Source: Eledone cirrhosa (Eukaryota). Taken from it: a DNA stretch of 64,000 bases. This document shows positions 1,626 through 57,680 of this stretch, piece by piece. The position numbers and the translations under genes were made by a program. Within the stretch, counting starts at the first letter, position 1; the number at the start of each line of letters is the position of its first letter. The stretch is taken from NCBI GenBank assembly GCA_964016885.1, contig OZ024740.1:162750001-162814000 (forward strand). Reading direction: 5' to 3'. Under the pieces are notes generated by a model that worked only from the letters and a program-made list of their open reading frames with translations, was not told the origin of the DNA and ran no database searches.

Positions 1626-2597
1626 GACGTTACCCTCAACCTCGAAAATTACCTGTACTACCCATACAGGAAACCAAACGACAACCTGCACTACATCCAC
1701 CGCCGCTCTAACCATCCTAGAAACATCACCAATAATCTGGTTAAAAACATCTCCCTCCGAATATCTTGTTTGTCCGCTAATGAGCAGATATTCGACGAAC
1801 ATGCGCCTCATTACAACCAGGCCCTCAAGCGGAGTGGCTTCCGGGAGGAATTATCCTTTTATCCAGCTTCCCTTAGCGGAACCAGCAGGCGACGCCGCCG
1901 CTCACGCCACGTAACGTGATTCAATCCTCCCCACAATGCCGAAGTGGCAACACCTATCGGAAAAATCTTTTTTAGGCTCCTCGAAAAACACTATCCACCA
2001 CAACACCGCTACCACAACATAATCAACAAAAACACTATCAAGATATCCTACAGCACCACAACCAACTTCGCACAAAACATCGTCTCCTCAAACAACAAAA
2101 AACTCAACCCCTATGGAAGAAACAACCTAGAAATTAGTGGAGAGCCGACCAGGAGGTGTAACTGCCCTGATGGATCTACGTGCCCCCTCAACAACAGATG
2201 CCGAGAACGTAACGTGATCTACCAGTGCAACGTGAGGACGGACACCTCCAACAAAGCTTATATAGGATTAAGCGCTTGTGACTTTAAGACCCGGCTATAC
2301 CAACACCGACATACGTTCCGGAACCCGGTCCGGCGACATGCCACCACACTTTCGGGCCATATCTGGGACCGCCAAGATAATAATATTACTTACCATCTTA
2401 CTTGGAGCTTACTGTCCACAGCTAACTCTTACACGGGAGGACGCTGTCCGTGTAACTTATGCTCGGAGGAAACATTAGAAATGCTGTTTACGAAGGATCA
2501 ACTCCTAAACAAAAAAGACGAACTGGTAACTGCATGCAAACACAGATTGCGGAAGACTTACCTCGCCCTCAAACCCCCCACTTGCCGAATAAGATAG
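1626..2597 (+). pseudogene. PLE RT thumb / linker / GIY-YIG endonuclease (Naiad-like), one in-frame TGA
   Basis: LDVTLNL..Y.PYRKPND..YIH..SNHP, T*FNPP (WFNPP motif), CNC-x5-CPL-x3-C, VIY..YIG, C-x2-C..E, LN..E..C.H. ORFs 1614 and 1944 share a frame. Confidence 0.9.
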
Positions 2598-8496: not shown

Positions 8497-10130
8497 TTCT
8501 TCTTCTTCTTCTTCTTCTTCTTCTTCTTCTTCTTCTTCTTCTTCTTCTTCTTCTTCTTCTTCTTCTTCTTCTTCTTCTTCTTCTTCTTCCTGAGAGGGTC
8601 GTGGTTGCAGACTCATCAAATATTCCTTCCAGTGGTTCCTGTCAGAAGCAACCGTCTCCAACTGATCAGGCTGGACCCCCAAGCGAGACCGCCAGGCTTA
8701 TGAATGTTATCCAGCTATCTTGCTCGATGTCTAACCCTGGGTCTCTTGCCAGTTGGTTTTGCCCGTGAAATCTGTCCAGCAATTCTTTCCTGGGACATTC
8801 TAACCACATGCCCATAGTATTGAAGCAGTGATCTCTCATTTCGGAGAAGTAGCGGCTTTACCTGGAGTGACTCTCTGATCTCCGACCTACGCACTCTATC
8901 GAGTAACGTTACTCCAAAGACCCTTCAGATGAACCCCATTTCGGCCGCTTGTATGCGCGATCGTATTCTTTCGGTCATTACCCAAGATTCATGTCTATAG
9001 GTAAGGGTTGGCACGAATCCCGAATTGAAGATAGCGAGTTTGGCTTGTACGCCTATCTCCCTTCTTCTGATTACCGAAAGTTGAAGCTGGCGCATTACTA
9101 CACTGAGTGCAAGTCGGAGATCACCGTCTGTCGAGTAACACCATGTCGTCTGCAAATTCCAGCCGACTGATTTTACACCCGCCTGTCACGATACCACCTC
9201 CAGCCTGGCTGCACATGTCAATCCTGTTCATGTAAGTAATGAAAAGGATAGGTGATAGTACGCATCCTTGGCGGAATCCAACTCACACATTGAATGGTTT
9301 CGATTTAGCACCATTTATCCGAACACAAATATTCGGACATTCGTATAGAGACATCAGGATAGCAAGAAACTGACACTCAACCCCATACTCCCGCACAACC
9401 TTCCACAGCAGTTCCTGGGGAACGCGGTCATATGCCTTTTCAAGGGTGACAAAACAAGAATATACCTCTTGACAATACTCCCACGTTTTCTCGAAGAGCT
9501 GCCGCAATGTGAGTATTTGGTCGACTGTGCTGCATCCTCGGCGAAAACCACACTGTTTATCAGCTAGCTTGGACTCGACAATCTTCCTGCATCTCTTTGC
9601 CAGACACATAGCATAGACTTTACTAGCTAAACAACGGGTCGCAGGTGACGGATAGCGATACGGCCACCATATATGATTGCTAGTTGCGATATAAGCGGTC
9701 AACTGCTGGACGAATAAGCAATTCCAGACCAACAGCGGTAAACTATTAGGGAAGATGGAGCAATGAGTGACACCTGTAGCTCCCAAGAAAACTCTCATAA
9801 CCCAGTGACGTACCTACGACAAGGCGAATAAAGGTCGCCTCTAAAAGCGCCTAATCTTCGCAGGTTTGACAAAGTACCAGATTGGTGACTGGCACAAATA
9901 TGATCACTGAAACTGCGACTGCAATATTGTGAGGAAAACAAAAAAGAACCATAATGCGTCGACCTTCGCGCAGATTAACAAGGGACGCGTTCAGGCCTTA
10001 GGTAGAGAGGACTGCTCGAAAAATATATTGCAGTCTCCATTTCATGCCGCAAAAACTGGCGATGGGCCTGTGACTTGTCCTAGGATGCGTGGGATTGACG
10101 CACAAAGATTGTGTATCCCGTGACCCCAAA
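8497..10130 (-). mobile_element. Internally deleted RTE-clade LINE with (GAA)n tail
   Basis: RT fragments QCGFRRGCSTVDQILTLRQLFEK..LEKAYDRV and RIQAAEMGF with frameshifts. The (TTC)n at 8497-8590 lies at its 3' end. Confidence 0.85.
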
Positions 10131-14322: not shown

Positions 14323-14879
14323 TTAGCTGTCATGTCTGCTACACTTCAATCAATTACTGCTGTGTTTGGTTGTTCTCACATTCACGCGCGCGCGCGCACA
14401 CACACACACACACACAATCACATAGATAACGACAGTCGTACGCATAGACGCCCGCTATACACACACATTTAAGGAGAACATATAAACATACGCGTACATG
14501 CATCCAGAGAGACACGTACATAAACAGACACATGCCCACATGCCTATATACATCAACATACACACACATACACATGCATACGCATATATATACCCGTACA
14601 CACAAACAAGTACAGACATATACATAGACCCCCCTATTCCACCCACGCACACACATACATATATATATATATACACGTACCCATAGCATTAACGAGACTA
14701 ACAGTAGAACCGACAATACAAAACGGAATACCTAAGCGAACGACGTAACCCCGCCGCCCACGGTAGACATACAGATAGAAGCAACATAGAGGACGAAATA
14801 ACGGGCTGGCAAAACCCGAGACGGGTACGTGACCCAACACACATTCACACTACTGCACACACACGAAGGAACAAGACAA

Positions 14880-15783
14880 GGTCTAAGGCCGTTACTTGGT
14901 TTAACGCGCCGTATTCTAAGCATGTATGCAGCAATGTACCAGGCCTATTTTTCCGAGCGTTGGACGACTGCTTCCCGCCGTCGAGCAAATACCACAAGAT
15001 TTACAACCGCCACACGGTGAAGTTTTCCTTCTCACCGCACCTAACATGGCAGACTACATGGCCAAAACCAACGCGGCGAAGATGGGGAACCTCGACCGTC
15101 AACCGCGGCGGCCGAATTACCGTCCATCGGAGCCCGGAGGGCCCCTTGCAGACCGGTCTTCCAACTACAACCCGGCCCATGCGTCGGCCGCCACGCCCGC
15201 GGAAGACAATACAATCCAACGCCGGGCGGAAATGAGTGGCGGAGGGGAGACCACCGTGTCGGCAGAACAACACCCAGAGAATCGAGAGAGGGCCGTGGCA
15301 GATCAAGGGTAAGGCGTCCGAAATAAACAATATAACGACAGAACGTGCAACTGTAGAGCGGGCACACAGTGCCCTCTGCAGGGAAGATGTCTAACGAATG
15401 GCCTGGTATATAAATCTGAGAGTAGCACGCACAATATAAAGTGCACCTACATCGGCGCAACATCGACGACCTTTAAATCGCGGACATATAACCACACAAA
15501 CTCTTTCAAAGACCGGAGCAAGAGGCACTCTACTAGGTTGGTGGACCTGGTGTGGTACTTGAAAGACAAAGGCACCCTGTATGCCCTCAACTGGAGTATC
15601 GTTTGGGACGCGAATGCATATTCGGCTGGAAATAGGAAGTGTAGGCTATACCTATCCGAGGCCATGGAGATAGTCAGACTGAAGGATGATGCGGTCAACC
15701 TGAAATCGGAAATAATCATGACGTGCAGACACCAGAGAAGGTGCAGACTCTCCACATGGAATCCACCAGGCAGCGCAAGCTAA
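14880..15783 (+). pseudogene. Naiad-type PLE C-terminal region (GIY-YIG), frameshifted
   Basis: VTWFNAPYSKHV..FPPSSKYHKIYNRHTVKFSFS, CNCRAGTQCPLQGRC, YIGATSTTFK, LNWSIV, VNLKSEIIMTCRH. Confidence 0.85.
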
Positions 15784-16479: not shown

Positions 16480-16581
16480 GTCCTTCATCAGTAGTCTGCT
16501 GATTATTATTGGTATTTCTTCGCATTAAAGACTAGATACCTAAATTCAGTGCGAGCGATAACTAAATTAAGTTATAGGGAC
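16480..16581 (-). ncRNA. Non-circularly permuted hammerhead-like motif, copy 1
   Basis: GGTA-TC-TAGTCT ... GAAA-TACC ... AGACTA-CTGATGA; see findings. Confidence 0.7.
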
Positions 16582-16979
16582 AGAGGAAAACAGAGGAAAG
16601 GAAACAAACAATATGGTAGTAATGCAACGTAAAGAGAGGAAATGAGAGACAAGTCAATGAATCTTGTGGGCTTAAGTCCGACAAATCAAATGACGAGAAG
16701 AAACAGACATGTCCGAGCCACGAGAAAAGTGGGAGAGGAAAGAATTTCACGCAGGTCAGATGGGAGGAAGGGCCAGCCGAGAGTGAGTGACCAGCAGCGG
16801 GGGTGGAGGAAAGCAAGAGGTGAAGGAGAGAGAAGGGGGAGAGAGAAAGAGGATAGCAGTAAGGTGACAGAAAAAATACGAATCACAGCGAAGGGAAAAA
16901 ATATATGTGAATGAAAAATGGCGTGCTGCGTTGTTGCGAGTATGAACATATGAATAAAAGTAGACCGAGAAACAAGAAT

Positions 16980-17081
16980 GTCCTTCATCAGTAGTCTGCT
17001 GTTTATCGTTGGTATTTCTTCGCATTAAAGACTAGATACCTAAAATCAGTGCGAGCGATCACTAAATTAAGTTATAGGGAC
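16980..17081 (-). ncRNA. Non-circularly permuted hammerhead-like motif, copy 2
   Basis: Same strand order and pairings as copy 1, 500 nt away. Confidence 0.7.
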
Positions 17082-17197
17082 GGAGGAAAACAGAGGAAAG
17101 GAAACAAACAACATGGTAGTAATGCAACGTAAAGAGAGGATTTGCGGACTTAAGCCCACAAGATGCATTGACTTGTCTCTCTTTCCCTCTCTTTACG

Positions 17198-17698
17198 TCA
17201 GTTGATTGAACGTTTGAAAGTATATACTTTCCTTATGTATATTAACGGCTGAGCAGCCTAATTTGCATATCGAGTGAGTTAGTCGGCCGGGCGTACTGAA
17301 AACGATAAATGGAAAAAAGGAAATTTCATTTCTCACTCTTAGTACGGCTGATACTTAAATATAAGTACGTTCAATCAACTGACAGGAAGGTATACAGTGC
17401 TGATGACAGCTAATAAGCTAGAAACTAGTTCATCGTTCCTTTATCAGTGTTGAACAAAATGGCAACGATGGTTGCCGAACACTGTACGGCGAATAATTCG
17501 GACTGTTTGTTTACAAACAAACCGAGCATTATAATAAATGTTCGGTAAACCAATACGTACATATATATATATATGTGTGCATGTATGTATGTATATACAT
17601 ACTACTGTACGTCTGTATACATATATGTATGTACGTATACATACTTATATTTAAGTATCAGCCGTACTAAGAGTGAGAAATGAAATTTCATTTTTTCC

Positions 17699-17702
<4 letters not shown>
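17198..17702 (+). mobile_element. Diverged fold-back copy of the 420-bp retrozyme family with minimal HHR at 17394-17436
   Basis: Homologous to 18135-19893. CTGATGA-C-AGCT(AATA)AGCT-A-GAAA-CTAG-TT. Confidence 0.75.
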
Positions 17703-17777
<75 letters not shown>

Positions 17778-17801
17778 CATATATATGTATATATATATGT
17801 A

Positions 17802-17886
<85 letters not shown>

Positions 17887-17897
17887 ATATATATGTA

Positions 17898-17960
<63 letters not shown>

Positions 17961-17979
17961 ATATATATATGTATATATG

Positions 17980-18010
<31 letters not shown>

Positions 18011-18059
18011 ATATGTATATATATATATATGTATATATGTATATATATATATATATGTA

Positions 18060-18135
<76 letters not shown>
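17703..18135. repeat. Long interrupted (TA)n microsatellite, representative of dozens of (TA)n/(CA)n/(GA)n/(TACA)n tracts
   Basis: Directly visible. Confidence 0.98.
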
Positions 18136-18140
<5 letters not shown>

Positions 18141-19225
18141 AGGAAAAATGAAACGAAATTTCATTTCCCATTCTTAGTACGGCTGTTACTTAAATATAAG
18201 TATGTACACGTACATACATATATGTATACAGACGTACAGTAGTATGTATATGTATATATATACATGCACACATATATATATGTACGTATGGATTCACCGA
18301 ACATTTATTATAATGCTCGGTGTGTTTGTAAACAAACATCCCGTATTAAGCCGTAGTGTCCAGCAACCATCGTTGCTCGTTTGTTCAACACTGACAAAGG
18401 AACGCTGTACTAGTTTCAAGCTTATTAGCTATCATTAGCAACGTATACCTTCCTGCCAGATTGTTGAACGTATATACTTACCTTATGCATATTAACGGCT
18501 GAGTAGCCCAATTTGCATATCGAGTGGGTTAATCGGCCGGGTGCACCAAATACGATAAATAGGAAAAATGAAACGAAATTTCATTTCCCACTCTTAGTAC
18601 GGCTGTTACTTAAATATAAGTATGTACACGTACATACATATATGTATACAGACGTACAGTAGTATGTATATGTATATACATACATGCACACATATATATA
18701 TGTACGTATGGATTCACCGAACATTTATTATAATGCTCGGTGTGTTTGTAAACAAACATCCCGTATTAAGCCGTAGTGTCCAGCAACCATCGTTGCTCGT
18801 TTGTTCAACACTGACAAAGGAACGCTGTACTAGTTTCAAGCTTATTAGCGTGGGAAATGAAATTTCGTTTCATTTTTCCTGTTTATCTGGACACTACGGC
18901 TTAATACGGGATGTTTGTTTACAAACACACCGAGCATTATAATAAATGTTCGGTGAATCCATACGTACATATATATATGTGTGCATGTATGTATATACAT
19001 ATACATACTACTGTACGTCTGTATACATATATGTATGTACGTGTACATACTTATATTTAAGTAACAGCCGTACTAAGAGTGGGAAATGAAATTTCGTTTC
19101 ATTTTTCCTGTTTATCGTATTCGGTGCACCCGGCCGATTAACCCACTCGATATGCAAATTGGGCTACTCAGCCGTTAATATGCATAAGGTAAGTATATAC
19201 GTTCAACAATCTGGCAGGAAGGTAT

Positions 19226-19268
19226 ACGTTGCTGATGATAGCTAATAAGCTTGAAACTAGTACAACGT
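19226..19268 (+). ncRNA. Minimal type I hammerhead
   Basis: ACGTTG-CTGATGA-T-AGCT(AATA)AGCT-T-GAAA-CTAG-TA-CAACGT. Confidence 0.85.
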
Positions 19269-19647
19269 TCCTTTGTCAGTGTTGAACAAACGAGCAACGA
19301 TGGTTGCTGGACACTACGGCTTAATACGGGATGTTTGTTTACAAACACACCGAGCATTATAATAAATGTTCGGTGAATCCATACGTACATATATATATAT
19401 GTGTGCATGTATGTATATACATATACATACTACTGTACGTCTGTATACATATATGTATGTACGTGTACATACTTATATTTAAGTAACAGCCGTACTAAGA
19501 GTGGGAAATGAAATTTCGTTTCATTTTTCCTGTTTATCGTATTCGGTGCACCCGGCCGATTAACCCACTCGATATGCAAATTGGGCTACTCAGCCGTTAA
19601 TATGCATAAGGTAAGTATATACGTTCAACAATCTGGCAGGAAGGTAT

Positions 19648-19690
19648 ACGTTGCTGATGATAGCTAATAAGCTTGAAACTAGTACAGCGT
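19648..19690 (+). ncRNA. Minimal type I hammerhead (tandem partner, 422 nt downstream)
   Basis: As above with one G-U pair in stem I. The minus copy at 18402-18444 reads CTAATGA (G5A). Confidence 0.85.
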
Positions 19691-19907
19691 TCCTTTGTCA
19701 GTGTTGAACAAACGAGCAACGATGGTTGCTGGACACTACGGCTTAATACGGGATGTTTGTTTACAAACACACCGAGCATTATAATAAATGTTCGGTGAAT
19801 CCATACGTACATATATATATGTGTGCATGTATGTATATACATATACATACTACTGTACGTCTGTATACATATATGTATGTACGTGTACATACTTTTATAT
19901 ATATATA

Positions 19908-28982: not shown

Positions 28983-29300
28983 GGTTCAAGAGTAACCAAT
29001 CTTAAAGAGAGAGATGGAGATAGTAGAGGAGATATGAGAGGAGAGATTGGTGAATTAGTTAGAAGCCAAAGCGTAAAGGCATGTGCTCAATGTGCAATAT
29101 GCAGTAGAAAGCAGCTAGGTGGCTGGGTTCATGCAGAAGTTAGGTGCGCAGAGCTGGAAATATTCATTAGTTAAGCAAAACAAGACCACAAATTTCACAA
29201 GGAAGACATTATTAAAAGATTGTCAACATATTTTAGTTTGATGTAAGGAATGTAGAGAATAATAATAATAATAATAATAATATTAATAATAATAATGTCC

Positions 29301-29420
29301 GTTTACAATTGTTTCGCTACTCCATATAATATTTCTGGATCAGATGACTATATATCATAATTGATCTGGTTCAGTTGAAAATAATTAACATATTTAAAAA
29401 ACAGAGTGGCTCATCGGAAC
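29301..29420 (-). ncRNA. Hammerhead with ~95-nt stem II domain, U4C-mutated core, 3' of a Naiad remnant
   Basis: GTT-CCGATGA-GCCACTC...GAGTAGC-GAAA-CAATTG-TA-AAC. Confidence 0.65.
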
Positions 29421-29796
29421 TTCAAAGCAATATAAATTAAAATAATGGGATAATGTTACATAATATAATGTTCCATATATTGGTTTTTACTATGGTGTCT
29501 TGGTTGCATCAGTTGTCAGCCATAATCAAGCAGTATTCATCTGTCGAGGCTGCATTGTGTGAGATCTGCCTATGAGTAACAAGATGGCTGCCAAAGGGCA
29601 TATTTACCTTACTAATTAGAGGGTGGTTTCAGGGGAAGTAACTTCTCAAGAGATTAGAAATTGTGGGTGTTTATAGTTAAGTGCTAATTTTTAAATTTTT
29701 TTAATTGAGAGACAATGTAGTGGAGGTAACTTATAATTATCGAGTTGTTCATAGCAATTTAACTTATTAGCTACAAGTAAAAATGGGGCTACATGA

Positions 29797-30548
29797 CTAA
29801 GTTGGGTCAAAGATTCTATTGGCGAAGGAATTAGCCCTTCAATGTTGACAGCTAATGGTTACCTCCGTTCTATCGTTAATCGGTAGAGGTCGTGATAGAG
29901 TTATGTAATATGCTTCCGTAATACAGAGATCACAAGATTTTCTTCGTCCATTGAACGTTTGGGCCCTAGCCACGATATCCCATTTTAGTGAGTGTTGAAC
30001 GTTGTTTAATTTAAGGTTTTTAATGAGCCTAGCTAGCGATGTCGAACATCTGTTGCTAGGGTCTCGGGAGGAAAAAGAGTACGCGTTATAGCGTACCTTA
30101 AAAGGGTTAGAGGTAGACCCGATATAAGAGCTGATATTCGAAGCAGTCTCAACCGTGCACCTATAGACTATGTTGGGTGTCAGGCAGTGTCCATTTATTG
30201 GGCATGCACTGGGGTAACGGCAGTTGCAGTTACTTCTGCGGTTAGTGAGAGTAGGGTAGTTTAACCTAAGCGGTAGGTCTGTGCTAGAAGGATTAGATGG
30301 GGGAGGTGTGCTACTAGAGTAATTATTGGTGTAGTGGCGTGGTGTATTTGATAGGGGTGGTGGTACCGCGGTGTGGGAGTTATACTGTCTTAGCTTATGA
30401 TGGTTACTGAACGCGATGTGACTAGCTAGGTTAGGTGTTGTGGAGAATGAGATTTTAATGTTATTTTTATTAAAGAGTTTGTAATATCTATGGTTGGGGG
30501 GTGGATAGGATAGAGAAGAAGCGTTTGGGGATATTAGTGGCTAGACTA
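29797..30548 (-). pseudogene. Naiad-type PLE C-terminal region (GIY-YIG), not in the ORF track
   Basis: Manual translation: PPNHRYYKLFNKNNIKISFSTTPN..CNCRYPSACPINGHCLTPNIVYRC..SYIGSTSNPFKVRY..LKWDIV..CDLCITE..INDRTEVTISCQH*R. Confidence 0.9.
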
Positions 30549-37526: not shown

Positions 37527-37632
<106 letters not shown>

Positions 37633-38169
37633 ATATTTGGGGAGGGTCATATTTGCGTAATATTGCCAGAATTAATAACAGAACACACTCACTGTTTGGT
37701 TGGTTTTCGCTTCTCGCTGTCTTTTATATATATATATATCTGCGATCTAACTTACTCGGTCCTCAATGTTGCCATTGACTGACCGGCGGTCAAAAATAAT
37801 ACAGATACAATATAGACACAAACACATATATATAGTTTACATAATTTACATAAATCTTTCGTTGCACATCTGCAACATCGTCAGTGGTGTTATATTCATT
37901 GTTCCTCCTGTTGTGTTGTATGTCTACGCCATTTTTTTTTTTTTTTTTTTTTGTTCAGTCTGTCTATATATTTATTTATTTATTTGCTTGTTTGTTTATC
38001 TTATTTTATTTTGTCTTCTTTGCGCATGCGTTTGCGTGTGTGTATAGTGTTATGTGTGATGTGTGACTAGTGTGTATAGTGTTGTGTCTGCTGGGTGACT
38101 AGTGTGTGTTTATGTGCTTGTGTATGTATTTATTTATCTTATTTTATTTTATTTAATTTACTTATTTAT

Positions 38170-39095
38170 TTATACTTCTCTTAGGTCAGTGTTGTTTGTT
38201 TGGGTGTTGTTGTTGTTCCACTCATTCTTTCTGTTTAGCTTTGGTCTTCTAATTTCTATTTCACTGGCCTCTCTGATTTGCCTATCTGCTGGGTCATTCC
38301 TATGTTTAGATATTATTCTAATTTCTATGTTGTCTATGTTACCGTCATGTTGTTGTCTAGCATGTTCGTATAGTACTGACCCGTTTTTTCGTCCTTTTAG
38401 TTCCCCCCAGTGTTGGTCTATCCTTTCACCTATGCTACGAGCTGTCTCACCTATGTATGTTGTTGTCGTGTTTCTGCAAGTACCCTCTGTACATCTTATG
38501 CTATAGACTACGTTTCTAGTTTTACAGTTTATCCGGGGGTTCACCTTACATATGATACATTTCCTATTGGTACAGTGGGTTTTCTTAAAAGGGTAGGTTT
38601 TGCTGATCAGGGATTTTATGGTGGTTCCTGGCTTTTCTACCACCTTTATTTTTAAGTGGGTCTTTCTCAGGGCCTTTCTACACTGGTTAGCTAATTTCCC
38701 TCCAGGGGTGGCGTCCACAAACATGACACTCTGATATCTCTGGTTGTCGTACCATGATGTGGCCTTCCCTATCTTATGTCTAGCCCTATCTAAGCTATTC
38801 CATGATTTGCTCCTGTATAGTGGGCAAATTCCTTTCATGTCCAGTTCTATGAGGGTCTTATACTTTTCCATGGCTCCTTCGTATACTCTGACTCTGTCTC
38901 TTTGGTTGTAGCCAGAGAACTGCATGCGGTTGATGAAGTGTTGGATGTGTCCTTCCATTTCTGTTGGGTCGCACATGCTGGACACATTCTTCATCACTCG
39001 TACCAAATCTGCGATCAGAATATTAAACTTAGCACTACTGGACATTGCTGAGTTTTTGAGTATCAGGTATTTGGAGGCCATGGGTTTAGCATATA
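38170..39095 (-). pseudogene. 5'-truncated PLE ORF (RT thumb, Cys-rich linker, GIY-YIG), non-Naiad type, frame intact
   Basis: Y.KPM..SAM..SGY..PLYR..SVMFV.ATPGG.L, C-x4-C-x2-C..NVVY.I.C..YIGETARS.GER..H..RQIREA..LNRKNEW. The first residues of ORF 38170..39114 come from an inverted tail. pLTR HHR at 37849-37886. Confidence 0.9.
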
Positions 39096-39142
39096 ACAAT
39101 ATCTGTTTCGACACACGATTTCATATAAAAAACCTCGCAAAA

Positions 39143-42694: not shown

Positions 42695-42734
<40 letters not shown>

Positions 42735-42978
42735 CGATTTCACAGAACTTATGTTCACCGATTTCAGGGACTTGACTCCTTCTTCCTCCCGTTTGACCTG
42801 TGCGAAATTCTTTCCTTGCTTACATTTTGACCAGGTTTGATGGTCTTTATTCTCTCTCGTCCACGATTTCACAGAACTTATGTTCATCGATTTCAGGGAC
42901 TTGACTCCTTCTTCCTCACTTTTCGTTGCATTACCATCTTTGATTGTCTACAATCTCGCTCGTTCCCCTTATTTACGT

Positions 42979-43080
42979 GTCCCAACGACTTTCTTTAGCC
43001 GTTGCTCGCACCAACCGGAGGTATATGGTCTTTAAAGCGATGAAATACCTATGAAGGTTGGCAGATCACCGATGAAGGAC
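42979..43080 (+). ncRNA. Non-circularly permuted hammerhead-like motif, copy 3 (U4C core)
   Basis: AGGTA-TA-TGGTCT ... GAAA-TACCT ... AGATCA-CCGATGA. Confidence 0.65.
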
Positions 43081-43132
43081 TAAATTTATTCATATATATA
43101 TATATATAATATACATATATATGAAATACACA

Positions 43133-43724: not shown

Positions 43725-44210
43725 GGGCAGTGGATTGGCAGTATCAGTAGAGGGTCGGACATCATGCTTTGCAGCTTAGAGTTACGGCCCTTGCCATTCT
43801 GAGTTCAAATCCCGCCGAGGTTAACTGTACCTTTCATCCTTACGGGGTCGATAAAATATAGCACCAGTCACGCACTGTGTGTGTGTGTGTGACAGGTCAC
43901 ACTTATGCAGGTTTAGCTGGCCTCCTCCAAGGTATATCTCGTTGGAGGTGTCTTGGGTAATTTTAATGATAGGGATCCCAGTCCAATCATCTCATTTCTA
44001 CAGCTGAGTAAACTGGAGCAACGTGAAATAAAGTGTCTTGCTCAAGGAAACAACACATCACCCAGTTCGAGAATTGAACTCACAACCTTTCGATTGCAAG
44101 CCCAATGCTCTAACCACTAAGCTATGCGCCTTCACCAGTCACGCACTGGTGTCGATTTAATCGACTTTCCCCTCCCCCAAAATTGCTGGCCATGTGCCTA
44201 TATAAGAAAC
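43725..44210 (+). mobile_element. Family A SINE interrupted by a second tRNA-SINE (43878-44132, minus)
   Basis: 16-bp TSD CACCAGTCACGCACTG (43862-43877 / 44133-44148). The inner element has A/B boxes, a TCCTTGAGCAAGACACT core and a (CA)n tail. Confidence 0.85.
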
Positions 44211-44772: not shown

Positions 44773-46505
44773 CGTGTGTGCGTGCGCGCCTGTGTGTGCG
44801 TGTGTTTATTAATGCGACTTTTATCTGAACATTTTTTTTTATAGAGGAAATAATTTTGTAGAGTTTTTTTTTTTTTTTTCAGAATGGGTGATTGGGGTTA
44901 GTTGTTATTAACTAGCGAAAGGACATTGATTTAATTGTTGAAAGTAGAATAATTGGATTGTTTTGTTTGAAGATCTCAATCGCAAAACAAGAAATCGAGG
45001 CACTTCATTGTAAACATCTATTAAATGAATACGAGAAGTTGTTGTTGATAATGATGATGATGATGATGTTGTTTATAGTGTTGTTTGTATTGTTGATGTT
45101 TCTGGTGTTGTCGACGTCGTTACTGTTGTCGAATTATTGATCACCTTTTTAATTTTCTTCCTTGAAAAATAATCTGATTGATAGATGATCTCAGAATTAC
45201 AATCAGTGAGAAGTCAATATTTGTAAGAAAGGGGTTGGATTGGCAGTATCGGTAGAAGGTCGGACGCCATGCTTTGACGCATAGAGTTACGGCCCTTGCC
45301 ATTCTGTGTTCAAATCCCGCCGAGGTTAACTTTGCCTTTCATCCTAACGGGGTCAATAAAATAAAGTACAGTAATGCACTGGGTAATTGCTGGCCTTGTG
45401 CCAAAAAGTAGAAACAATTATTATTAATATTTTCCTTGGAAGGGTGGTGAATTGACAAACTTTGCCTTTCATCCTTGTGGAGTCGATAAAATAAAGTGCC
45501 AGTAATGTACTGGGTAATTGCTGGCCTTGTGCCAAAAGTAGAAACAATTATTATTTTCCTTGGATATCTGTATATTCACATACATCCCACTGGATTTCAA
45601 CCAGGGGCCTCGGGTGGGTGATGGTTTGTTATGACACATTTTTCCTGATAAATAAATAACTGATTGTTACGAAATATATAATGGATAAAGTGTACTCTTG
45701 TCCATGGATATAACATTACACTAACAATGCTCTTCACAAAATGTGAACAGTACTACTAAGTAAGATTATTTGAATTTGTTTTTTATACAAGGTTTACCTG
45801 GCATGTGATCCAGTAGTTTGTTAGTTTCTTCTTTATCAGGCCCAGAGCTCCAATTACAACTAGAATAGTGGAGGCTTTTATACCTCACATTTTTTTCCAA
45901 TCTCTATTTCAAGATCCTTGTACTTTGAGATCTTTTCAAATATCTTGAAAGACCCATTGCAATCAGCAGGTACTGACATGTCTATCATGAAGCACATTTT
46001 GTTGTTTTTATCTTTTATTATAGTCTGTCCGCTTTGATTGACCTGTCACTGTGTATAGAAAAATCGTACAGCATTATTACATTACTGAGTTTGGATGATG
46101 TTGAGACCAGTTTTTTGTTATATCTTTTCCATAGGACTTACATATTTTCTAGTGGATGTACTGCACCACTCCGTTGTGTCTGTTTTGTATTCACACGATG
46201 CTAAGGAGGTGCATGCGGATATTAGCTGATCCACTGTTTCAGTATTTCAATTACAGAACCGGAATTTGCTGTCATTATGTCTGCCCAATATGGTTGCCTA
46301 ATATTTTTTTTTTGTGCAGCTAGTATGAAACCTTCGATTTCGTTTTTCAGTCATGAACTCTGCAACCACTGATGGGTTTGGGTTTTGATTACATTAGCTT
46401 GCCTGATTCAAGTACTGGCCACGTAGGGGCGTATTTTGCCATTTTTCTTTCAACTCGCAACTTTACGATTGCGAATCCAATTCTCTAACCACTCAGCCAC
46501 GCGCC

Positions 46506-46573
<68 letters not shown>

Positions 46574-46615
46574 GATGGCTGCGCGTTGCAAATGGTGGTG
46601 CATATGAAAAAGTAA

Positions 46616-46717
46616 GTCCTTCATCAGTGACCCTCCAACCGTCCCAGGCATTTCATCGCTTTAAGGGCCATATGCCTCAGGTTGGTGCGAACAACGGCTA
46701 AAAAAAGTCGTTGGGAC
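46616..46717 (-). ncRNA. Non-circularly permuted hammerhead-like motif, copy 4
   Basis: AGGCA-TA-TGGCCCT ... GAAA-TGCCT ... AGGGTCA-CTGATGA. Confidence 0.72.
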
Positions 46718-47057
46718 ACGTAAATAAAGGGGACGTTAGGGTAACAAACAAAATGGTTTAAGCAACGGAAAGTGAGAAGAAATAGACAAGTCCCAGATCT
46801 CTATGAATATAAACTCGGTGAAATCGTGAACAAGAGACAAAAGACCATCAAACCTGGTTGAAATGTGAGCAAGGAAGGAATTTCGCACAGGTCTGACGGG
46901 GGGGGGGGGGGGGAGAGAAAAGGAAGAAGAAGAAGAAGAAGAAGAAGAAGAAGAAGAAGAAGAAGAAGAAGAAGAAGAAGGGGTCTGGTCTACGAATTCG
47001 GTAAACATAAGTTTTGTGAAGTCGCAGACGAAAGAGAGAGAGAAAAAAATTCCATAC

Positions 47058-47128
<71 letters not shown>

Positions 47129-54218: not shown

Positions 54219-56206
54219 TTAAGTAAGGCAATCGTGCATGTTTTAATAAATTAAGTGTCAAAAATAGATACAATACCTTCCAAAAATATTATCCACAGTA
54301 GATTTTTTGTGTATGTAAAGACGGAAGATTCGTTCTTTCTTATCTATTCAATTACGATACTAATCTAAATACTCTCTCTTGTGAATCTTTCAGTGCTTTG
54401 AAGAGATTTATATCATTTTCTCACAGAAATGGAAGATATTGAAATGATGCCAGAATATCACCAACCAGATTTACCTGTAGAGGATTAGTCACTAACGATT
54501 GTTTTAACATACAGCCTTAAAAGTAAATAAAGTTCTCTAGCGACGGATCAGGAATGGGTATACTGACAGTTTGAGATTATCCCCCCCCCCCTTCCCACCA
54601 GTATCAAAAATCTTGAGAAGAGTCATGAGCGCTGCCTTTCTCTATTACAGCTTACCTGAGAACACGAAGCGGGGTATTCAACAATGTATTGTAAAACTGC
54701 AGTATTGAATCTAAACATAATAATTTATATCAATTTCACGACTCTTACATATATATTGATTAACTATTACGTATATTCATTAAACACTTGGTATTATTCT
54801 AGTTAAACTTTTCGCCACTCTTATATGTATCAAGAAATACTGAAAGGACGCACCACTTTCCTCTTGAAAGGGAACTTGAAAAAATCAATGAGAAGTTAGC
54901 AGAAGAGGAATGTATCTGCACTCTGTTCTTCCAATCGTGTTTTCTATGCAGCCCCTTTCATCATACACACCAGAAAAAGGGGAAACTGTCTGTCCTTCTA
55001 GCAAAAGAAAGGTGACGGGCGAATTTCACGAAAGCCGGATCTGTTAACAGAACAAAACTTCGACAAAACTCCATACTTCAGCAAAGCTCGAATACTGTTT
55101 GGGCATTGGAAAACTGTTTCGTCACTTTGTGCTCATCTCGAACAGGCCTGACTGACGACACTTAGAACTGGTAATGAGACTCTCCTTAGTTACACAGCCA
55201 GCACAGGGATATCTGGAAATGTTTGCACTGACGTTTTCTTAACAAACCAGCAAGAACATTATCGCTCTTTCTTACCACTAATCCTCTACAGGAAGTTAAC
55301 ATGGAAATTCTACTAGTAACATTATGAGACTAATGTTCAAATGTTGTGTGCAAATAATTAGTCAAAACCAGGAATTTCACCTTTAACCTATAACAATAAT
55401 GAAAATAGCATTGGAAGCAACGTCGATGAAAACAACAACGATTGACGGTAACTGACTTTGACTTAGCAGCTAAATCACTCTCAAATCACACCCATCCGTC
55501 TAAAAAAGAAACATAACTAACACATTAAATATTGTAATCAATAGTTCCCTAAAGAAAGGGAATGATCACATGATGTGCTTTTGATCATTGGTATACTCTA
55601 CCAAAGTTGACCTCAGAATATACAACATGCCATTGAAATTATGAGCGTCTTATGGTCAACTGATCTGTCAAAAGATATTTACAAAACAACGAAAAAAAAA
55701 GACATTGACAAAACAGAAGCAATTTTGATAGTTAAAGAATAATTAAGGTAATTATTGAAATATTACAGAATGACAGCTTCTGTTTACTTCTTGTGATTTG
55801 TGTGGGAGAGAGATTCAAAGTCACAGTATTATTAAATTATATAGATGTTTCAACACTTTTTTTTCATAACGTGGCCTATGTTCAAGACGTTGATAATAAT
55901 ATAATACTTTGGGATTCACGTGTCCATGTATATTTTTATATAACATTGCACATATGAAGAAAACGCATTACTATAGTTTTAGACATTTACTGGAAAAAAA
56001 TTTCCTCCACATTATCTTAAAGACCAACTTGGTATCAATTATTTTCTTAACACATTTCGATATTTACTATATACACACACACACTTAAAATCTCTAAAAT
56101 CTACCATGCGTCCTGGAGGCCGAAGGTTGTATATTATTTGTTTTCAAATTTTTTTTTTAATTTTTGGTTGTCAAAATTAGGGTGCGTCCTTGAGGACGAA
56201 GCGTCG

Positions 56207-56260
<54 letters not shown>

Positions 56261-57680
56261 CGACGCTTCGTCCTCAGGGATATATATATATATATATAAA
56301 AGTATATATAAACCCATAGAGAAAATATTTATTATTAGTACAGATTAAATTTTAAGCAAAGAATTTCTGCTTTCACCCTATTACAGGATCTTCTGAAACT
56401 GAGAAAAATCAATCTATAGACGCAGAAGTAAATATTTCAAAAAATATTTTTGGCGTTGGGTACGTATTCATTTTTTAGACTTTAGTGCCTCATTATATAT
56501 TAGATCGACATATAGGGCGGTGGATTGGCAGTAACGGTAGAAGGTCGGACACCATGCTTTGACGCATAGAGTTACGGCCCTTGCCATTCTGATTTCAAAT
56601 CCCGCCGAGGTTAACTTTGCCTTTCATCCTTATGGGGTCGATAAAATAAAGTACCAGTAATGCACTGGGATAATTGCTGGCCTTGTGCCAAAAGTAGAAA
56701 CAATTTTTTTATATATTGGTGTTGTTTGGGCGAATATTGTTTTGTTGGATAATATAGTAAAGGTTTTCCTGCTAAGATATTTATTATTGCCGGTGTATTG
56801 GGGGTTTCTTTTTTTATTCAAGTTTCACCAACTGCGGAACAGAATGCACGATAATTCCAACATGGAAAGAACAACAAAACAAAGTAACCAACAAATTATT
56901 AACCTGTGGAATAAGAATGTCAGTATAGTGATACCAAAGTCTCAACAATCTATGAAAAACATATTTAGTGACATCAGATATAAAATATCAATTTATGAAG
57001 TAGACAGAATAGCAAAACGAATTATCGTCATATAAAAAATACAAAAATATAGTAAATTATGTGATTTTCACATTCATGAAGAAAACATTACAGTCCGGGA
57101 CACATGTCAGGTTAATATATTTCGTCATCTGGGTTTACGCGTGGCAGGATTATGGCGCACTCATGTCGGGTTCTACGCATGCGCATTCGCGTCGGGTCAC
57201 GCAGCGTCTTGTGCACTCCCGCCGGTTGCTTTTCTTGCACATGCCACTAGAATTGGAGATAAGCACCGATTTTTACTTTGCTTTGCCTTGATGGAGCTGT
57301 AGGATGGCTGTCGTATCATATATTTTAAACCCGGTGAAATCTCGTACACCTTCAGATCTCACTGCAATTCATTTCTCCAGAGAGAGAAACTAGAAGTAGT
57401 ATCGATCACTAATTTATCAAACCCGAAAGAAGGAAAGACAAAGTTGACTTTGGAGTTCTAACGATTCAACAAACCTACCACTGTTGTTATTTAGCCTCAT
57501 GCCAGTGCTGATTTAACAAACCTAGGTTCAAAGGCATTCCCACCGCGACCATCCAGTTTAGTTTTCTTCTTGTTCGGTCATAGTGTTTCTAAGATAATTT
57601 AGTCGGCGTGTTCTTCTGTGTATCGATGAAGAATGTAATTTGATGAAGATTTGTTTGTAATTTCTAGCAAATCTGCCGAC

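Follow-up and report, generated by a model that had tools for sequence, protein, structure and literature searches.

Eckert et al. (2023) defined blocks S, G and C of the hammerhead ribozyme and validated the type SGC by cleavage and rescue, with rates of 0.007–0.19 per min (PMC10085705). According to the accessible part of that report, the 583 SGC sequences came from metatranscriptomes only, and known genomes yielded none except one GCS candidate. The descriptors used there required CGAAA and a direct stem II, and insertions beside CUGANGA were assumed to be at most 1–2 nt. Among the Penelope-like elements (PLEs), the accessible part of Craig et al. (2021) reports that the canonical hammerhead is absent from Naiads, of which 17 of 54 carried 'HHR_core/half_core' flags (PMC8557442). 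Here we describe four 102-nt hammerhead copies in a 64,000-nt stretch of the Eledone cirrhosa genome (assembly GCA_964016885.1, contig OZ024740.1, positions 162,750,001 to 162,814,000 of the forward strand; hereafter the window). The predicted structure is a new, real and strongly structured variant of the non-circularly permuted hammerhead, located in an animal retrozyme. We consider it likely that it is a self-cleaving reverse-order hammerhead, present once per monomer of Naiad-derived non-autonomous PLE retrozymes, in which the nested helices would fold first, docking would occur in cis, and a cut after position 46671 would free monomers. At the level of sequence, six covarying helices were established, as were non-coding monomers in tandem that are 5′-truncated, sometimes inverted, and end in (TA)n at two sites.

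The four copies belong to three subfamilies (F1a, F1b and F1c) and are listed below.

46616–46717, minus strand: copy F1a, order II′-S-G-C; positions 1–102 are counted down from 46717
42979–43080, plus strand: copy F1b, core CCGATGA (U4C), in an element at about 42732–43091
16480–16581, minus strand: copy F1c, triplet AUC, the 3′-terminal member of a tandem pair
16980–17081, minus strand: copy F1c, 500 bp upstream within the F1c tandem

The original prediction, made from the letters of the window, had placed four copies at these coordinates and strands, which proved correct. The copies align over 102 nt without gaps. A family covariance model, whose training set included three of the four, recovered exactly these four in the window (E-values of 1e-23 to 3e-27; next best 0.06). 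Rfam gave 245 weak matches in the window, and the best 150 of them include no hammerhead. The proposed order, stem III′-UH-stem I′, then GAAA-stem III, then stem I-CUGAUGA, was found on all four copies, and the pairings of stems I and III were as predicted. The cleavage triplet is kept as AUH (AUA, AUA, AUC and AUC). The claim that the core is kept in all four copies holds for three, since the copy at 42979 has CCGATGA. Beside the F1c tandem, 17139–17198 is an inverted copy of 16627–16687.

The secondary structure was numbered 1–102 on copy F1a. Stem III is formed by 42–46 with 67–71, H17 is position 47, stem I is formed by 48–53 with 85–90, GAAA occupies 64–67, and CUGAUGA occupies 91–97. The parts are as follows, all on the minus strand.

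46714–46717: 5′ strand of helix A (1–4 with 99–102), pairing with 46619–46616; the RNA ends open here, and the helix covaries between families
46692–46713: hairpin B (5–26), which forms one of the arms at the stem II four-way junction
46687–46690: upstream (fourth) strand of stem II (28–31 with 59–62), pairing with 46659–46656
46680–46685: 5′ strand of helix D (33–38 with 78–83), pairing with 46640–46635; it corresponds to the helix by which stems I and II interact in type SGC
46665–46676: block S, with the 5′ strand of stem III (46676–46672), H17 (A, 46671) and a strand of stem I (46670–46665)
46647–46659: block G, with a strand of stem II (46659–46655), GAAA (46654–46651) and a strand of stem III (46650–46647)
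46616–46640: 3′ strand of helix D (46640–46635) and block C, with a strand of stem I (46633–46628), CUGAUGA (46627–46621), N98 (46620) and the 3′ strand of helix A (46619–46616)

By analogy with known hammerheads, the cut site is predicted between 46671 and 46670. In the predicted fold, stem II is completed by the upstream strand inside a four-way junction with helices A and B, which is new here, and helix D ties stems I and II together. The 6-bp helix D (46685–46680 with 46640–46635), the most strongly covarying helix, and hairpin B (46713–46692) were absent from the original prediction. The fourth strand of stem II had been predicted from the pairs GTCC/GGAC and TCGC/GCGA. Both pairings are present; they are invariant in the four copies, and covariation appears only in divergent families.

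Pairing was examined in 25 full-length copies from three families (F1, F2 and F4), hand-picked from neighbouring loci and from 36 clusters comprising 147 distinct candidates; the choice excluded copies that were truncated or badly decayed. Stem registers were obtained by alignment-anchored counting, as greedy automatic parsing mis-assigned several decayed copies. With registers taken into account, the paired cells were 138/150 in stem I, 107/125 in stem II, 121/125 in stem III, 137/150 in helix D and 115/125 in helix A. In fixed columns, 85.2% of 813 cells were paired, compared with 70.5 ± 0.9% after shuffling and 32–44% after sliding, and the covariation score was 0.455 against 0.213. Two-sided changes occurred at 22 of 33 pairs, including all six pairs of stem I and three of five in stem III. 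A tree of the 25 rows requires at least 19 changes from one Watson-Crick type to another in helix D, 14 in stem I, 4 in stem III and 3 in stem II.

The core, stem II, and stems I and III in register at the cut site were all present, as expected of a hammerhead. U16.1-A15.1 was found in 25/25 copies, G at position 17 in none and U4 in 23/25; block S was absent from the search patterns that gave F1 and F2. The stem II pair 28:62 was U-A in nine copies, A-U in four and G-C in seven, and is compensatory between families. In F2 the upstream strand forms a perfect 5-bp stem II, with its last pair (G-C) adjoining GAAA. Position 11.1 pairs with position 98 in F1 and F4 (A-U, U-A, G-C or G-U) and with position 27 in F2 (G-C), and one or the other pair was found in 22/25 copies. 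The 10.1-11.1 pair was G-C in 16/25. The junction lies one pair (10.1-11.1) off the core in F1 and F4 and directly between A9 and G10.1 in F2; these are one four-way junction in two registers. The spacer from stem III to stem I was 13 nt in 20/25 copies, the link from stem I to stem II was 3–5 nt, and helices D and III were linked by 0–7 nt. Minimum-energy folds recovered helices A, B, D or III in part, with z-scores of −2.7 to −4.2 for F2 and F4.

Several of these data weigh against a self-cleaving hammerhead of this form. The 25 copies were selected by hand as full-length, and GAAA and CUGANGA were search criteria. The count of pair types did not exceed that of shuffles (49 vs 52.9). The three distal pairs of stem II were nearly invariant in the 25 copies, and no strand shows weaker covariation than the upstream one. 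In F1c, an abundant subfamily, positions 10.1-11.1 are often A.A or C.A; the copies at 16480 and 16980 have A.A. For three window copies, the minimum-energy folds did not stand out (z −1.1 to −1.6). F1 uses AUA and AUC triplets; of four triplets compared in one study, AUA cleaved most slowly, and AUC is seldom found naturally (PMC1636495, accessible part). The registers of helices A and D were picked per copy to maximise pairing; in a shuffle control of this optimisation on an overlapping set, helix A scored 130 against 109 ± 7, stem II 116 against 82 ± 6 and helix D 117 against 69 ± 7.

The original prediction noted that rare natural non-circular permutations have been reported, and the order of the parts equals one of them, type SGC, as presented in the accessible part of PMC10085705. 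The two share the S-G-C order, the short link between stems I and II, the same core, and a helix that begins one nucleotide past the stem II strand and connects stems I and II at their far ends. They differ in stem II, which in type SGC arises by direct pairing of block C with block G, the largest insertion after A9 being a single U. In the family studied here, stem II is formed wholly or mostly by the upstream strand through the four-way junction, and the ends open in helix A. Direct pairs of stem II between blocks C and G number one in F1 and F4 and none in F2, and block C is interrupted. The family is predicted to work like type SGC, yet it is outside SGC as defined, because block C is interrupted and the stem II strand lies upstream. 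In the predicted topology, the family is a type SGC hammerhead closed by linking its original ends between helix D and stem III, and opened anew within a helix that is inserted in stem II. Type SGC was found in no known genome by Eckert et al., whereas more than 10,000 genomic copies occur here in one animal.

The A9/10.1 step also tolerates an insertion in the plus strand of chrysanthemum chlorotic mottle viroid (CChMVd) and in PLE minimal hammerheads (PMC3705267, PMC4209133). Those described in the accessible parts of these papers have one nucleotide at this step, whereas F2 accommodates an entire branched domain there, together with the ends of the RNA. The expectation that standard hammerhead searches would miss the family was borne out, as the Eckert descriptors need CGAAA and a direct stem II, and Craig et al. 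saw only 'cores' in Naiads.

The 3.0-Gb genome, whose repeat landscape is reminiscent of octopods, was searched with sequence patterns and with control patterns. The pattern GAAA-N16..32-CYGANGAAGGAC gave 11,944 matches against 99 for the reversed pattern, and the pattern combining the upstream strand, AUH and GAAA gave 10,661 against 0. F2 surfaced once the known stem III was excluded (1,385 matches vs 14 in the control), F4 came from a third pattern (132 vs 50), and older decayed families of the same fold gave 83 matches vs 34. With a 116-nt F1a query, 458 candidates were obtained, and all 40 scored matches were identical to the query, which points to a recent spread of F1a. Contigs of a sequencing run from another study ('organism B') cover the ribozyme over 113 nt with 13 differences. 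The F1 pattern had no match in viral contigs. Three metagenome matches to the F2/F4 pattern were taken as chance, as stem I was found in none.

Such numbers could also arise if a chance arrangement of CUGAUGA and GAAA had been amplified by a repeat, as repeat copies are not independent. A recurring GAAA...CTGAAGA family without stem I (L187, L197, L200 and others) did surface in the searches and was rejected; it resembles the antisense strand of a coding region of a long interspersed nuclear element (LINE). We regard a chance origin of the hammerhead family as very improbable because of the counts of 11,944 vs 99 and 10,661 vs 0. Dozens of double-sided changes over six helices, conserved spacers and the same fold in unrelated Naiads (PMC8557442, accessible part) also argue against it.

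Two further groups of sequences were seen in these searches. One is an older family in L231, L235, L255, L272, L274 and L275 (near 1500 or 5050); it has this fold, its stem II ends in GTGTC-GAAA, its cut site is GUA, and every copy is decayed. Subfamilies in L151, L169 and L208 lack the base at position 98, have a G straight after A9 and a C before GAAA, and are intermediate between F1 and F4.

The ribozymes lie in non-coding, pyrimidine-rich (0.70–0.77) monomers with a spacing of 500–806 bp and one ribozyme each. The host monomer of the F1a copy is given below.

46571–47060, minus strand: 5′-truncated F1a retrozyme monomer between two (TA)n runs, with a 3′ tail of about 45 nt past the ribozyme

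Tandem arrays reach nine units (locus L224). Copies are 5′-truncated, some with inverted 5′ pieces, and their 3′ ends lie in (TA)n at two sites about 41–45 nt apart; the proposed mobile family targeting (TA)n was confirmed in this respect. The 3′ ends are bimodal, at 14–15 and 55–64 nt past the core in F1a, 16 and 53–66 nt in F1b, and 29–33 and 76–78 nt in F1c. The bodies of different families share short patches only. The features of PLE mobilisation were all found, namely 5′ truncation, partial tandems, inverted copies, a two-site 3′ end and an AT-rich target. Two-site 3′ ends are described as the PLE tail, marking two starts of reverse transcription (PMC11167929; PMC8557442, accessible parts). 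No conserved open reading frame (ORF) joined to the ribozyme was found in 198 ribozyme-bearing locus strands or in four wider regions. On the sequence evidence, the host is a Penelope-type retrozyme with the plan of the retrozymes without long terminal repeats (non-LTR retrozymes) and a different ribozyme.

Non-LTR retrozymes (PMC7229834; bioRxiv 10.64898/2026.07.22.740005) are likewise non-coding head-to-tail monomers with one hammerhead per unit and a GC content below 45–46%, in the accessible parts of these reports. PLE mobilisation is proposed for them, and the 500–806 bp found here falls inside their range of 51–972 bp. Their defining ribozyme is a type I hammerhead, in which helix III is often weak, whereas the hammerhead here is of reverse order and multiply pseudoknotted. 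Expression as linear and circular monomer RNA is a further mark of these retrozymes.

Other PLE-type repeats in the same loci hold ordinary type I hammerheads. The sequence CTGATGA-A-GGAC-loop-GTCC-GAAA, which belongs to minimal type I hammerheads from a different PLE, occurs at eight places, including near variants (L221:4802(-), L222:4355(-), L016, L117, L144 and three more). They share the letters of block C and helix A with F1, which could reflect ancestry or convergence on a common stem.

The mechanism that we propose for the self-cleaving hammerhead starts from a tandem or read-through transcript. The nested helices A, B, D and III, which the minimum-energy folds recover in part, would fold first. 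The loop of stem III, comprising UH, the stem I strand, 3–5 nt, the stem II strand and GAA, would then dock in cis onto the junction. Docking would make stems I and II pseudoknots, with helix D bent back and holding their far ends, and several hundred nucleotides of the monomer would hang off helix A. The usual core would assemble and cut after H17 (46671/46670). Cuts at successive units would free monomers, possibly circularised as shown for type I retrozymes. A PLE reverse transcriptase with a GIY-YIG endonuclease would nick (TA)n and start copying at either of two sites downstream of the ribozyme, and this two-site start would give truncated, tandem and inverted copies.

The geometry of cis docking was tested with rigid cylinders, A-form parameters and a free stem I under four settings, a model in which strand threading is not represented. 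F1, F4 and a frayed F2a fitted as monomers under all four settings, with an overshoot of at most 0.2 Å. F1a overshot by at most 1.1 Å, and F2c, which has a zero linker, by up to 4.5 Å under strict settings. A control with a short helix D failed the test. The original prediction considered some 1-nt linkers too short for a monomer fold, with which this crude test disagrees. Short linkers therefore do not force a dimer, which is possible and not required, because a monomer is feasible in the crude model.

If the ribozyme acted instead as a dimer with swapped domains, blocks S and G in the loop of stem III would dock into the junction of the neighbouring unit (upstream strand and block C). The continuous III-D arm would bridge two antiparallel cores, and only tandem transcripts would cut. 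Helices D and III share both strands and make up one kinked arm with linkers of 0–7 nt, which is consistent with such an arrangement, as are the frequent tandem copies and the misfit of the zero-linker F2c. Metazoan type I hammerheads and those of PLEs are known to act as dimers. The monomer fit of F1, F4 and frayed F2a, nearly matched by F1a, speaks against the dimer, and a palindromic element was not evident. In addition, the single-unit SGC constructs of Eckert et al. cleaved during transcription, although trans action is possible there (PMC10085705, accessible part). We judge the dimer unlikely.

A link between the proposed self-cleaving hammerhead and Naiads was sought in the consensus sequences of File S5 of PMC8557442, which were read by eye around CTGANGA in its accessible part, so that motifs split by line ends were missed. 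Clear reverse-order hammerheads were present in 17 of 54 published Naiad consensi. The same four-strand fold occurred in nine records (Naiad_Amil, Aacu, Anas, Obim, Ovul and four more, one of them in the Clytia stretch). In the Acropora Naiads the junction has no unpaired base, and the helices measure 8 bp (A), 6 bp (B), 6 bp (II), 10 bp (D) and 6 bp (I). Two records of the arachnid stretch have the S-G-C order with other solutions for stem II. Six nematode records (Nbra-1, -2, -3 and three more) are of type CSG, with a direct stem II and helix D. Naiad_Bfor has a partial reverse-order hammerhead, and none was seen in the bivalve stretch of File S5.

The 3′ ends of Naiad_Obim and Naiad_Ovul share the fold, the 13-nt spacer from stem III to stem I and the AATGAT linker with F1b and F1c. 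The Octopus Naiads have A-U at a stem II pair that is fixed as G-C in the 25 copies. Four short motifs from the present families had no match in the accessible part of the Craig supplement. Naiads and the present elements are alike in (TA)n targeting, partial tandems, inverted 5′-truncated copies and a tail of 30–40 bp, but the elements here are non-coding (PMC8557442, accessible part).

The Eledone genome gave 20 Naiad-like matches, identified by eye against Naiad_Obim, of which 18 have stops; the longest open frame is 313 amino acids. It counts against a Naiad origin that only decayed remnants, and no intact Naiad, were found among these 20 matches. Nor was a ribozyme found downstream of the two remnants examined, of which one breaks off at a TA run and the other contains intervening short repeats. 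Cephalopod Naiads have long been inactive according to the accessible part of PMC8557442, and the decayed remnants fit this. No autonomous ORF was found upstream of 20 decayed Naiad-like ribozyme copies. A pattern for the Naiad reverse transcriptase motif had no match in the genome, and an endonuclease motif pattern had two, one in a Naiad remnant and one not. A search of protein representatives gave unnamed GIY-YIG proteins, and none of the five examined was of Naiad type. The driver of the young copies may be an intact Naiad outside the matches found, or another PLE clade. Decayed Naiad-like elements with the endonuclease before the reverse transcriptase motifs lie at G000:C4:322969355-322971310 (-), in L287/L293 and in L280–L300.

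The main role of the hammerhead-derived fold might instead be to signal recognition or folding to the PLE protein, with cutting that needs protein help or hardly occurs. In a canonical PLE of anole, the hammerhead required the protein for cutting, and mutating it did not lower insertion in vitro (PMC11167929, accessible part), which favours such a role over self-cleavage. PLE minimal hammerheads are also reported to cut poorly in the accessible literature. Genomic copies run straight through the cut site, and their 5′ truncation points are not interpretable. A reading of the truncations as a cleavage footprint was rejected, as about 19 distinct junctions among the first 100 matches listed cluster at the element's own TA (32, 44–48 and 55). 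Against a pure protein signal, U16.1, an H17 that is not G and the exact stem registers are kept across families with mostly unalignable bodies. The same features were seen by eye in Naiads of several phyla (PMC8557442, accessible part). Since such conservation of cut-site features across unalignable bodies is hard to explain without catalysis, we consider the protein signal quite improbable.

With a self-cleaving ribozyme as the preferred explanation, the comparison extends beyond this genome. Reverse-order hammerheads are quite likely the overlooked standard ribozyme of much of the Naiad clade, together with the retrozymes that belong to it, in cnidarians, nematodes, arthropods and cephalopods. 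The nematode CSG type, the SGC type of Eckert et al. and the four-strand form would then share a single circular topology and differ in where it is opened; one of the three openings lies within stem II or at the A9/G10.1 step. This probably exposes the missing ribozyme of many Naiads, and offers a direct, testable answer to why Naiad PLEs seem to be without the hammerhead of other PLEs. If true, a curiosity of spruce metatranscriptomes would become one of the more abundant ribozyme forms of invertebrate genomes, and a new layout would join the six that were considered possible. No animal genome would have yielded a non-circularly permuted ribozyme before this one, which is present in more than 10,000 copies. 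The split block C, the four-way junction and the ends inside stem II make up a layout that the sole systematic search assumed absent. These sequences also provide natural, deeply covarying, multi-pseudoknot hammerheads for structure work. The family was not found in print in a literature coverage that left subscription journals and bioRxiv supplements outside.

Further repeats were observed in the window. Fragments of 3′ ends of PLE-like ORFs with GIY-YIG-type motif ends, recognised by eye, lie at 1920–2597 (+), 14708–15783 (+), 29839–30540 (-) and 38170–39120 (-); Pfam named no family for these GIY-YIG-like ORFs or for a Naiad remnant. CUGANGA...GAAA words in type I order stand behind two of the PLE-like fragments, at 29000–29840 and 37600–38170, on the minus strand. 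Long inverted repeats centred on (TA)n at 220–431 and 56191–56276 gave spurious microRNA matches and are probably inverted PLE ends. A 420-bp repeat with tandem and inverted copies occupies 17300–19900 beside the F1c pair and also adjoins an F1a copy in L003. A transfer RNA-like stretch at 44063–44134 (Rfam, 32 bits) is similar to 46449–46509, which adjoins F1a, and is probably the head of a short interspersed nuclear element. A fragment of a LINE-type reverse transcriptase (Pfam RVT_1) was found at 9283–9813 (-).
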